This document shows, piece after piece, positions 4,145 through 18,791 of a stretch of DNA of 42,356 nt. Made by a program: the position numbers and the translations under genes. Position 1 is the stretch's first letter, and every line of letters starts with the position of its first letter. The stretch covers positions 1 through 42,356 of the IMG/VR virus record IMGVR_UViG_3300019487_000011, one strand, 5' to 3'. This DNA is from a virus. The notes under the pieces are model-generated. The model was not told the DNA's origin, did not search any database, and was given only the letters and a program-made list of their open reading frames with translations.

Positions 4145-4202
4145 TCAGTACGTCCCCGTGACAGACTTGGGGGCGCTCCAGCACCCCAGTGAATAACCCG
4201 GC

Positions 4203-16018: not shown

Positions 16019-16194
16019 GGATTGACCGGATTCCGGCCATCCTTTGCCTGTATGACGCCCACGTACCGACCGGATTCCTTTGCCTCCGGGAGCTAAAGAC
16101 CCCCGGGGAAGTCCTAGAGGCGTTTAACGCCCGGGAAGTGGGACATTTCGTCGTAGATCACGAAAAGATCGACGCGCACCGCATGGAGCCTTAA
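15658..16194 (+). CDS. ParB/Srx-like nuclease-domain protein
   Basis: LRASIAEVGVKVPILVW..GK.WLRYGASRVHACEWLGIDRIPAI fits the ParB N-terminal domain pattern (PI.V ... G..R..A ... G...IPA). The true start is uncertain. Confidence 0.6.
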   Translation: MGQDATGEGEGPLDGTGGPLWTGHYGSLRISALEPFCIIDRCAAEVGVLEFRVRGDGTRSAGLRPRAIDPGILANRASFFTGLRASIAEVGVKVPILVWGIKGKLWLRYGASRVHACEWLGIDRIPAILCLYDAHVPTGFLCLRELKTPGEVLEAFNAREVGHFVVDHEKIDAHRMEP

Positions 16195-16200
16195 GGGGGC

Positions 16201-16229
16201 TTGACAAAGCCCGGTTCGTGTAGTATACT
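16201..16229 (+). promoter_or_regulatory. Near-consensus promoter P3 (TTGACA-N17-TATACT) upstream of the tRNA array
   Basis: It lies immediately after the ParB-like stop. It is the last recognisable promoter before the tRNA array and late genes. Confidence 0.7.
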
Positions 16230-16544
16230 GGCTCCATGATCTGGTTAATCGTTCTTTGCGGCATCGTCTGGCTCGGTCTCCGAGAGGCGGTGAACCTGAC
16301 TTAGGTCCGGGTGGAGCGGCGGCCCCGGGTCCTTTGAGTTGGCCCGGCCACGGTCCGTCCTCCCCTCCCGGCTGGGTACAACCGGCCCCCGGGGCTCCCC
16401 CGTGGGGCCGCCTATTCTGGGCTTGTGCGGAAGGCCGCATGGCTCCCTTGCGCGGAAAAGAGGACCTATAGGGGCCCCTATGATCTAGCCGTACGCCGCG
16501 ACCGATATTTAAAATACGGGACCTAATAGGTCCACCAATTCTAC

Positions 16545-16615
16545 GCCACTGACGCTGCGGAGCGTCCCGGTCTCCAAAACCGACAGATGGGGTTCGACTC
16601 CCTACAGTGGTGCCA
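16545..16615 (+). tRNA. tRNA-Trp (CCA)
   Basis: Acceptor GCCACTG/CAGTGGT. Anticodon loop CTCCAAA (CCA at 16574-16576). T-arm TGGGG-TTCGACT-CCCTA. Encoded CCA. Very short D-arm with loop GCGG. Confidence 0.6.
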
Positions 16616-16657
16616 AACGTCAGCCGCTAGAGACGTACCCGAAAGGGCCTTGCAACT

Positions 16658-16742
16658 AGCGGACCTATATTGCGGTCGGTCCAGTGACCGACAGGGGCTC
16701 ATAACCCCAGTTAGCCGGGAGCGTCACCCGGGGCCGCTACCA
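16658..16742 (+). tRNA. Aberrant tRNA-like element with CAU anticodon loop (Met/fMet/Ile2-type?)
   Basis: Acceptor AGCGGAC/GGCCGCT (6 of 7 pairs). Anticodon arm GGGG-CTCATAA-CCCC (CAT at 16700-16702). T-arm CCGGG-AGCGTCA-CCCGG. A73 plus CCA. There are 10 nt instead of 2 between the acceptor and a 5-bp D-stem. Confidence 0.3.
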
Positions 16743-16749
16743 AGTTTAT

Positions 16750-16822
16750 GCGGATACGCACAAGGCGTGTCGTCCGCCTTCTAAGCGGTGCAGTAGGGGT
16801 TCGATTCCCCTTATCCGCTCCA
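16750..16822 (+). tRNA. tRNA-Arg (TCT), copy 1
   Basis: Acceptor GCGGATA/TATCCGC. Loop CTTCTAA (TCT at 16780-16782). T-arm AGGGG-TTCGATT-CCCCT. Encoded CCA. Confidence 0.7.
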
Positions 16823-16825
16823 ATT

Positions 16826-16896
16826 CTCCCGAGCGCCGAGCGCACGGACCGCTTCTAACGGTCTGGGGCTAGGTTAGATTCCTAGGCGGGAGGCCA
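16826..16896 (+). tRNA. tRNA-Arg (TCT), copy 2
   Basis: Acceptor CTCCCGA/GCGGGAG. Anticodon stem GACCG/CGGTC with loop CTTCTAA (TCT at 16854-16856). T-arm CTAGG-TTAGATT-CCTAG. Minimal D-arm. Encoded CCA. Confidence 0.55.
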
Positions 16897-17218: not shown

Positions 17219-17291
17219 GCCCGGTGTCCCTAGTGGGCAGGAAGCTCTTACAAAGCATCCGTGCAGGGAGCGTAACCTTGACTGGGTACCA
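17219..17291 (+). tRNA. tRNA-Val (TAC), non-canonical T-loop
   Basis: Acceptor GCCCGGT/ACTGGGT. Loop CTTACAA (TAC at 17249-17251). T-arm CAGGG-AGCGTAA-CCTTG, with no TTC. D-arm CCC-TAGT-GGG. Encoded CCA. Confidence 0.5.
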
Positions 17292-17529: not shown

Positions 17530-17534
17530 ATACG

Positions 17535-17567
17535 GCTTCGCCGTCTCAGACGCGAAGCGTCTTTTAT
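17535..17567 (+). terminator. Terminator-like hairpin + U-tract inside the tRNA array
   Basis: GCTTCGC(C)GTC-TCA-GACGCGAAGC forms 7+3 bp with one bulge, followed by GTCTTTTAT. It lies in the only long spacer (38 nt) of the array. Confidence 0.45.
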
Positions 17568-17802: not shown

Positions 17803-17879
17803 GCACCTATCGTCTACGTTAGCTAGGATGCTGGGCTTTCACTCCGGCTAACAGGGGGCAGCACCCTGTAGGTGTACCA
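17803..17879 (+). tRNA. tRNA-Glu (TTC), non-canonical T-loop
   Basis: Acceptor GCACCTA/TAGGTGT. Loop CTTTCAC (TTC at 17838-17840). T-arm CAGGG-GGCAGCA-CCCTG. D-loop lacks GG. Encoded CCA. Confidence 0.55.
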
Positions 17880-18392: not shown

Positions 18393-18791
18393 ATGACGGA
18401 CCACGAAGAGAAGCCTGTAATCAAGCGCGAAGGTGGACGCTTCGTCAAGGGCCAGAGCGGCAACCCTGCCGGTCGGGCCAAGGGCACGAAGAACAAGATC
18501 ACCCTCGCACGGTTGCTGCTGGAAGAGCAGCTTCGGGACGCTCTGGCTAAGAGCGGCCCTAAGCTCATGCAGCAGGCAATCAAGCAAGCCCTCAAGGGCA
18601 ATGACCGCATCATGCGGGTGTTGCTCGACAAGATGCTGACGACCCCGCGTGACGCGCAGGAGTCGGATAACCAAGACCGCGAAATTAACGTCGTGGTCCA
18701 GAATCTGGTCACCGACCAGTCGGCCAAGCCGAAGCTGATCGAGGGCGAGAAATCGGTTCGTGTTCCCGTAACCATCCCCATCAAGGACTAA
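18393..18791 (+). CDS. DUF5681-type protein (small terminase subunit candidate)
   Basis: 132 aa. The FVKGQSGNPAGRAKGTKN motif is typical of DUF5681 proteins found upstream of large terminases. The ATG lies 4 nt after the last tRNA CCA. Confidence 0.6.
   Translation: MTDHEEKPVIKREGGRFVKGQSGNPAGRAKGTKNKITLARLLLEEQLRDALAKSGPKLMQQAIKQALKGNDRIMRVLLDKMLTTPRDAQESDNQDREINVVVQNLVTDQSAKPKLIEGEKSVRVPVTIPIKD

Follow-up and report, generated by a model that had tools for sequence, protein, structure and literature searches.

The tRNA array and its setting

The window analysed here, a stretch of 42,356 bp taken as a whole, is a complete virus record with direct terminal repeats and ~60% G+C. A tRNA array lies on its plus strand between a ParB-like gene, which ends at 16194, and a DUF5681 gene, which starts at 18393. 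Replication genes (a family A DNA polymerase and a DnaB-like helicase) are found on the minus strand to the left of the array, while the DUF5681, large terminase, portal and capsid genes follow on the plus strand to the right. ARAGORN called 15 tRNA genes in the array with default settings and 19 with relaxed settings. To this set we added by eye tRNA-Val(UAC) at 17219-17291, tRNA-Glu(UUC) at 17803-17879, and a single unit with the anticodon CAU, the only one in the array. The CAU unit was called by neither Rfam nor ARAGORN (default and -ps90), and a Rfam search over 16613-16749 returned no match even at E <= 10. No tRNA-Ala was present in the array, judged by ARAGORN in default and relaxed modes and by inspection by eye. 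Cave-metagenome contigs from a second run, which belongs to another study, span 16420-16573 and 16613-16868 with zero differences, so the arrangement at the head of the array (Table 1) is not an assembly artefact.

Table 1. Features at the head of the tRNA array, in coordinates of the window
Feature	Position	Strand	Description and evidence
Sigma-70-type promoter-like site	16201..16229	+	TTGACA-N17-TATACT, upstream of leader and array; counterparts TTGACA...TACACT / TAGACT in L027 and L049
Surviving 5' half of tRNA-Ala(UGC)	16419..16451	+	Positions 1-36, through anticodon TGC; GGGCTTG-TG-CGG-AAGG-CCG-CA-TGGCTCC-CTTGC; identical to L027 1706-1738
76-nt lineage-specific segment	16452..16527	+	In place of 29 nt encoding A37 to C66; joint 16451>16528 with 29 other letters in soil runs; alignment to L027
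Minihelix 1 (element 1)	16519..16537	+	Foreign-segment heptamer paired with Ala 3' strand, plus ACCA; pair 3:70 is A:U
tRNA-Ala 3' end	16528..16537	+	Acceptor 3' strand AGGTCC, A73, CCA; collinear with L027 1768-1777 and L049 (CAGGTCC-A-CCA)
tRNA-Trp(CCA)	16545..16615	+	Rfam 32.2 bits; ARAGORN -ps90; orthologue in L027
53-nt Trp-Met spacer segment with element 2 hairpin (16624-16662)	16617..16669	+	L027: 5 nt (CACTG) in a 7-nt spacer; joint 16616>16670 with CACTG
Compact tRNA-Met(CAU), initiator-like, 72 nt	16671..16742	+	Identical in L036 5-76; orthologues L027 1863-1934 and L049 4083-4153

For comparison we used three contigs of related uncultured phages, reached via the flanking genes: L027 and L036 through DUF5681 homologues that are 98% and 67% identical, respectively, and L049 through a ParB-like homologue that is 76% identical. 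Two public soil runs carry a relative, ~90% alike, with informative joints, and the same relative, when fetched, was L027; L036 and L049 are more distant. Among cultured-phage records, neither the interval nor the CAU or Val unit had a match, near or distant. Exact-pattern scans with the CAU unit and with the 29-nt segment of the relative found nothing in IMG/VR, JGI metagenomes or GTDB genomes, and none of the listed public sequencing runs holding the sequence is an RNA run.

Across relatives (L004, L029, L037, L041, L045, L030, L034, L036 and L027), the site between the ParB-like and DUF5681 genes holds 0, 1 (Trp or Asn), 2, at least 4, at least 13, at least 22 or 27 tRNA genes. Such variable counts at one intergenic site mark the locus as a tRNA hotspot, with a large array common to a sub-clade. 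The last gene of the large arrays in related phages is always tRNA-Ile(GAU). Among loci of terminase (TerL) relatives in IMG/VR, the 19 scanned of 25 found held no tRNAs. The idea that the array was inserted exactly at an old DUF5681 start codon was dropped, as the alignment of the window and L004 junctions was no better than that of shuffles.

A conserved head module precedes the first tRNA (window 16201-16415; L027 1487-1705; L049 3760-3939). It comprises a strong sigma-70-like promoter, a hydrophobic mini-ORF of 17-22 codons (16236-16304 in the window), a G+C-rich leader that carries the motif TCCGTCCTCCCCTC, and a hairpin resembling a terminator (16383-16410 in the window). Both TCCGTCCTCCCCTC and this hairpin are also seen in relatives that have few tRNAs or none (L004, L010, L037, L041 and L045). 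Inside the array, the 38-nt Cys-Leu spacer (17530-17567) contains the hairpin GACGC-GAA-GCGTC followed by TTTTAT, which resembles an intrinsic terminator in mid-array. Structured inserts that are not tRNAs are found in related arrays as well (L036 240-360, 674-785 and 1349-1420; L041 4697-4800; L044 17-115; L049 4014-4082), and one insert, beginning ATCATGACGGTGCCGCCCCGCACCGTGC, is common to L036, L041, L043 and L044 as a conserved unknown RNA-like element. The unit called as tRNA-Arg(UCU) at 16750-16822 has a glycine-type body (G1-C2-G3, U73). In L027 (1939-2011) and L049 the orthologous anticodon is UCC (Gly), and one substitution, C36 to U at 16782, sets the window apart. Judged by these orthologues, the anticodon has shifted, or the tRNA is disabled or mis-specifying, and the change leaves the window without Gly(UCC).

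A compact tRNA-Met(CAU)

The first-pass annotation had described the CAU unit as an aberrant, 85-nt tRNA-like element starting at 16658, with 10 nt between its acceptor and D stems. Several of its observations stand: the anticodon arm GGGG-CTCATAA-CCCC (16694-16708) is present and initiator-like, the T-loop is non-canonical, the unit ends in A73-CCA (GGCCGCT-A-CCA at 16732-42), and no other unit of the set decodes Met. The 16658 start, the 85-nt length and the 10-nt linker did not hold up, since the upstream strand AGCGGAC is missing from all three relatives, and the unit is not aberrant in the way described. Conservation instead begins at 16670 in all three, and the conserved acceptor 5' strand is TGCGGTC at 16671-77. 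The four CAU sequences align from TTGCGG to the 3' end (CCA; CC in L049), with flanks that cannot be aligned. In L027, tRNA-Trp is followed by a 7-nt spacer and then directly by TGCGGTC, and in L036 and L049 CGAT stands before TGCGGTC. ARAGORN with default settings calls the L027 copy as tRNA-Met(cat), 72 nt, in exactly the compact register. The window and L036 copies are identical over all 72 nt, despite DUF5681 proteins that are only 67% identical. This comparison indicates that the 10-nt insertion and the 16658 start arose from the choice of a look-alike 5' strand, AGCGGAC, in lineage-specific DNA.

In the compact register, the acceptor stem has a U1·U72 mismatch, pairs 2-7 with 66-71 (standard tRNA numbering), and A73-CCA. 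The D arm consists of a 4-bp stem (GGTC/GACC) and a 4-nt loop (CAGT), with no 8-9 linker, and the anticodon stem GGGG/CCCC is extended by an A·A mismatch and three more pairs. The variable region is 2 nt, and the T arm reads CCGGG-AGCGTCA-CCCGG (16715-31). The minimum-energy structure of each CAU sequence is this same cloverleaf, and 22 of its 22 pairs are kept across the three distinct sequences. Four pairs have changed on both sides: 8:19 and 9:18 in the D stem, 21:41 in the anticodon-stem extension (A:U to G:C), and 46:60 in the T stem. All 66 pair cells are paired, a result reached by 6 of 500 shuffles, and slid controls were 30-55% paired; with only three distinct sequences, the statistics for covariation are thin. 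These counts were kept within one tRNA type, because MAFFT placed the Ala unit wrongly against the CAU and Val units. The anticodon-stem-extension pair separates the two models, because its 3' partner is unpaired in the fold proposed earlier. The long D hairpin of that fold (5-11 with 16-22 of the 72-nt unit) can still pair in all relatives, and its acceptor partner is absent from them.

Set against a canonical tRNA, the CAU unit has an acceptor of 6 bp plus U·U, the A73-CCA end, the loop CUCAUAA, and a 5-bp T stem with a 7-nt loop. It lacks the T54-Ψ55-C56/A58/G18-G19 elbow and the 2-nt 8-9 linker, and it falls short of the Rfam gathering threshold (RF00005). Its L027 orthologue (U55, GG) is called by ARAGORN with default settings and not by Rfam. 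The substitutions among orthologues preserve the structure, no pair is broken, and conservation ends at the gene borders. On this evidence from sequence, the unit appears to be a genuine, selected 72-nt tRNA-Met(CAU) of compact design. In L049 the CAU tRNA (4150-4156 region) stops at CC, directly against the first base of tRNA-Gly, so its terminal A would be added post-transcriptionally, or processing would be shared by both genes.

The hallmarks of tRNA-fMet are an unpaired 1:72, G2-C3-G4-G5, three G:C pairs beside the anticodon loop, and A73, and initiators carry a purine 11 : pyrimidine 24 pair, A11:U24 in E. coli. The U1·U72 mismatch is found in the window, L027, L036 and L049. Of the 19 array members whose end is correctly delimited, no other has it: the remaining 18 have a Watson-Crick or G·U pair there. 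The pairs G29:C41, G30:C40 and G31:C39 are present, with the loop-closing pair a G·U in L049. If the D stem of the compact arm is taken as 10-13 with 22-25, its second pair is G:C in the window and A:U in L049. The U1·U72 mismatch, the G29-G31:C39-C41 pairs and A73 argue for an initiator, and we somewhat favour an initiator or dual-role assignment. The rival reading is a role purely as elongator tRNA-Met, or as tRNA-Ile2 with C34 modified to lysidine. Each array has one CAU tRNA in a set that otherwise covers nearly all amino acids, and a complete elongator set needs Met, which argues that the unit must elongate as well as, or in place of, initiating. We consider a purely elongator role less likely than an initiator or dual role, and an Ile2 or non-functional unit less likely still. 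Against the rival, all four sequences keep the 1:72 mismatch, which no other array member shares, and the three G:C pairs beside the anticodon loop are conserved apart from the one change to G·U. Two further points bear on Ile2. AUA codons are nearly unused (1.0 per 1000, vs. 25 for AUG), which argues against that role, and pairs 4:69 and 5:68, which are G:C in E. coli tRNA-fMet and C:G in E. coli tRNA-Ile2, are G:C in the CAU unit and thus fMet-like.

Hairpins on either side of tRNA-Trp

The Trp unit is an ordinary tRNA-Trp. Downstream of it, element 2 is present as the first-pass annotation drew it, with CCGCTAG (16624-30) and CTAGCGG (16656-62) enclosing CCC-GAAA-GGG (16638-47) and followed by ACC. 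No homologue of element 2 was found in L027, L036, L049 or the genome. A similarity to L036 1349-1420 was rejected: 14 of 1000 shuffles reached the alignment, yet an unrelated tRNA scores higher with the same query. A similarity to the structured, non-tRNA spacer before the CAU tRNA of L049 was also rejected, being no better than shuffles, and CCCGAAAGGG was dropped as a shared motif because it is too frequent to be meaningful. Given this lack of conservation, the most economical reading is that element 2 would be debris confined to this lineage, or what is left of a decayed gene; it may conceivably have a regulatory role, but nothing here supports one. Relative to L027, the indel may be a gain in the window or a loss in L027.

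As noted earlier, TAGCGG can pair with either copy of CCGCTA, and within 120 nt CCGCTA occurs twice and TAGCGG once. The two folds were said to be mutually exclusive, which is not forced, as element 2 does not overlap the true tRNA (16671-16742); the competing fold exists because the 3' arm of element 2 resembles the 5' strand of the tRNA. A partition function over 16613-16745, a check proposed with that claim, gave 0.52 for the element 2 stem, 0.46 for the earlier acceptor and 0.51 for the compact acceptor, and the energies were -48.2 kcal/mol for the earlier fold vs. -47.3 kcal/mol for the compact fold plus element 2. With energies so nearly equal, energy alone cannot decide between the folds, and by this model misfolding of the CAU region may occur in the window lineage. 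These nearly iso-energetic states, with an ensemble split of ~46:51, and the arrangement of the repeats would suit a processing or folding switch, in which a decoy strand in element 2 (TAGCGGAC) competes with the true TGCGGTC for the acceptor 3' strand and tunes the only Met tRNA by alternating between two states, the element 2 hairpin with a correctly folded tRNA and an 85-nt misfold. We regard a switch as improbable. It shows neither conservation nor covariation: element 2 is missing from L027, and the unrelated spacer of L049 offers an equivalent strand, TAGCCGAC, with an extra mismatch in the middle of the pairing. Furthermore, the energy model omits tRNA tertiary contacts, which favour the cloverleaf.

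Upstream of tRNA-Trp, minihelix 1 had been described as the hairpin GGACCT-AAT-AGGTCC (16519-16533) followed by ACCA (16534-16537) and then ATT. All of this is present, and the 16519-16533 stretch can also be read as a 7+7 palindrome, GGACCTA-A-TAGGTCC. Aligned with L027, the window matches at 33 of 33 nt up to an anticodon, diverges for 76 nt, and resumes its match at AGGTCCACCA (AGGTCC-A-CCA-ATTC, from 16528). The corresponding stretch of L027 (1706-1777) is an intact 72-nt tRNA-Ala(UGC) directly before tRNA-Trp, called by ARAGORN -ps90 as tRNA-Ala(tgc), with a cloverleaf as its minimum-energy fold and the sequence GGGCTTG-TG-CGG-AAGG-CCG-CA-TGGCTCC-CTTGCAA-GGAGTCC-TT-CTCGG-AGCGTTA-CCGAG-CAGGTCC-A-CCA. 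A second intact tRNA-Ala(UGC) is found at L049 3940-4012, with the same acceptor and different D and T arms; both intact genes have the acceptor GGGCTTG/CAGGTCC, G3:U70 and A73. The 29 nt lost from the window encode the 3' anticodon stem, the variable region and the T arm. The remnant, with neither T arm nor 3' anticodon stem, does not fold as a tRNA, while it is collinear with an intact orthologue, as expected for a tRNA pseudogene or fragment. Of the options raised before, a decayed tRNA therefore holds for element 1, whose ends match the L027 tRNA-Ala and whose middle is replaced: judged by this alignment, minihelix 1 is the 3' stump of a broken tRNA-Ala(UGC) pseudogene spanning 16419-16537. 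The array lacks Ala because this gene is broken. A proposed search for homologues gave a divided answer, with the CAU unit conserved and the 5' arm of the minihelix and element 2 not conserved.

Within the 76-nt segment lie GGACCTATA (16462-70) and the palindrome ATAGGGGCCCCTAT (16468-81), together with an AT-rich block and the minihelix 5' arm (16519-25). The segment is quasi-palindromic, with 20-nt arms that are 80% complementary and a perfect 14-nt palindrome, which hints at fold-back copying during the rearrangement. The 29-nt middle of the Ala gene was swapped for 76 nt of unrelated sequence, and the complementary heptamer may have come to lie there by chance or by fold-back copying. No other copies of either lineage-specific insert were found in the genome or in the fetched loci, and the idea that the two are copies of a repeated mobile element was rejected for want of further copies. 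An intron or split-gene reading of Ala was also rejected, since the 3' anticodon stem and T arm are absent and not displaced. No integrase, att duplication or CRISPR activity is evident at element 1. The 9-mer GGACCTATA has only two copies in the genome, 16462-16470 and 16661-16669, one in each lineage-specific segment. Its sequence is similar to the 5' end of tRNA-Glu in L027 (GGACCTAT) and complementary to that of the Ala 3' strand. GGACCTAA lies at 16519, and GGACCTA occurs 14 times genome-wide vs. ~5 expected. On the minus strand, 16519-16533 reads as minihelix 1 followed by CGTATTTTAA and has a terminator-like score, with no leftward gene to its right.

G3:U70 is the alanine identity pair, model RNase P minihelix substrates consist of an acceptor plus T stem and are longer than 7 bp, and t-elements, found in plant mitochondria and in haloarchaeal rRNA operons, are conserved processing signals that resemble tRNAs and are cut by RNase P or RNase Z. 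Both hairpins here have a 7-bp stem followed by A-CC(A), and minihelix 1 (-8.8 kcal/mol) is stabler than most shuffles, 4 of 200 being as stable (z = -2.5), so one might take them for functional acceptor-stem mimics of the t-element kind, which would signal processing or, as decoys, divert RNase P, CCA-adding enzyme, synthetases or defence nucleases that target tRNAs. This is about as improbable as a switch: the 5' arm of minihelix 1 and the whole of element 2 lie in DNA missing from the closest relative and have no further copies, the 7-bp stem is shorter than model minihelices, and GGACCTA/TAGGTCC gives A3:U70, leaving minihelix 1 without the alanine identity pair. Like t-elements, elements 1 and 2 are acceptor-stem-like hairpins beside stable-RNA genes; unlike them, they are not conserved, being absent from the same position in L027 and without significant similarity to the L049 and L036 spacers.

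The reading of the interval and known systems

At the level of the alignments, the gene boundaries, orthology, structure-preserving substitutions and breakage of Ala are demonstrated. We read the interval, with a probability of roughly 0.8, as the worn head of a phage tRNA array, in which an Ala pseudogene, an ordinary Trp gene, a 53-nt spacer segment that forms a hairpin and a selected compact tRNA-Met(CAU) follow one another. Transcription of the array would yield a precursor for host RNase P to cut at 16670/16671 and 16544/16545, and the Ala stump and element 2 would be released as spacer debris and degraded. Host MetRS would charge the CAU tRNA through its CAU anticodon and A73, and the product would serve as an initiator, possibly also as the only Met elongator of the set. 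This reading removes a false lead, since the minihelices would be no sign of a new RNA device, one being the stump of a broken gene. The CAU tRNA was missed by Rfam and by ARAGORN (default and -ps90), yet by the evidence above it is real and under selection, and it would extend the non-canonical tRNAs of phage arrays by one that is initiator-like. Its compact design could provide a handle on how much of the universal tRNA core is needed by bacterial RNase P, MetRS, formyltransferase and ribosomes.

The compact architecture is common to the CAU, Val and Ala units, which share a T-loop AKCGTNA. A covariance model built from the CAU unit (R1) had the Val(UAC) units as its best non-self matches (E 3e-6 to 8e-8); at E <= 10 it missed the L027 Ala unit. 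An A18/G55 elbow, formed by an AG D-loop and G55, is found in the CAU units of the window, L036 and L049, in the Val units and in the L027 Ala unit, and the L027 CAU unit has a G18/U55 elbow. From the window to L027, the D-loop CAGT and T-loop AGCGTCA of the CAU unit have changed together to AGGT and ATCGTTA. This joint swap from A18/G55 to G18/U55 in the same gene of close relatives is direct orthologue-level evidence of interchangeable elbows. Tentatively, the CAU, Ala and Val units could be working compact tRNAs of an architecture for which no description in bacteria or their viruses is known (one that lacks an 8-9 linker and has a D stem of 3-4 bp closed by a 4-nt loop, 2-3 additional pairs in the anticodon stem, swapped A54/U58 and an interchangeable elbow), with the CAU tRNA serving as the single Met tRNA for initiation, and perhaps elongation, as in mitochondria. 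A limited literature search found no paper describing the compact design or the A18/G55 elbow in phage tRNAs.

How does this locus compare with known systems? Pseudogenes inside tRNA arrays are known: of the 26 genes in the Anabaena trn operon, three went undetected (PMC8421152). Prokaryotes also have partial tRNA genes, which can be mistaken for other things (PMC9897764). Element 1 resembles such fragments: it is part of a gene, has kept the 3' end, lies in a dense array and is likewise open to being mistaken for something else. It differs in its internal 29-to-76-nt replacement, in having kept both ends, and in the perfect 7-bp hairpin formed with the retained strand. There are good descriptions of the tRNA array units, or L-arrays, that phages and plasmids carry (PMC4758250, PMC5966550, PMC6409571, PMC8421152). 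The window array resembles them in its >20 tightly packed tRNA genes, encoded CCA and several NGC-type T-loops with an AG D-loop. In contrast, it resides in a 42-kb phage, at a locus with 0, 1, 2 or >20 tRNAs in relatives, and its compact Ala, Val and Met units have positions 54 and 58 swapped (A54/U58) and a shrunken D arm.

In mammalian mitochondrial tRNA-Ser(UGA), which has a non-canonical cloverleaf, an extended anticodon stem offsets a reduced D region (PMC10412605). The compact phage tRNAs likewise offset a short D region with extra anticodon-stem pairs and have a short connector and variable region, but they share no common descent with it, are G+C-rich with an encoded CCA and a 7-nt T-loop, and would be read by bacterial enzymes. 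Compared with bacterial tRNA-fMet, the CAU unit has the same CUCAUAA loop, unpaired 1:72, G2-C3-G4-G5, three G:C pairs and A73. However, its mismatch is U·U and not C·A, its 4-bp D stem with a 4-nt loop follows the acceptor with no 8-9 linker, its anticodon stem is extended, its variable region is 2 nt, its T-loop is AGCGUCA (A54, G55, U58) in place of TΨCRA, and it is the sole Met tRNA of its set.
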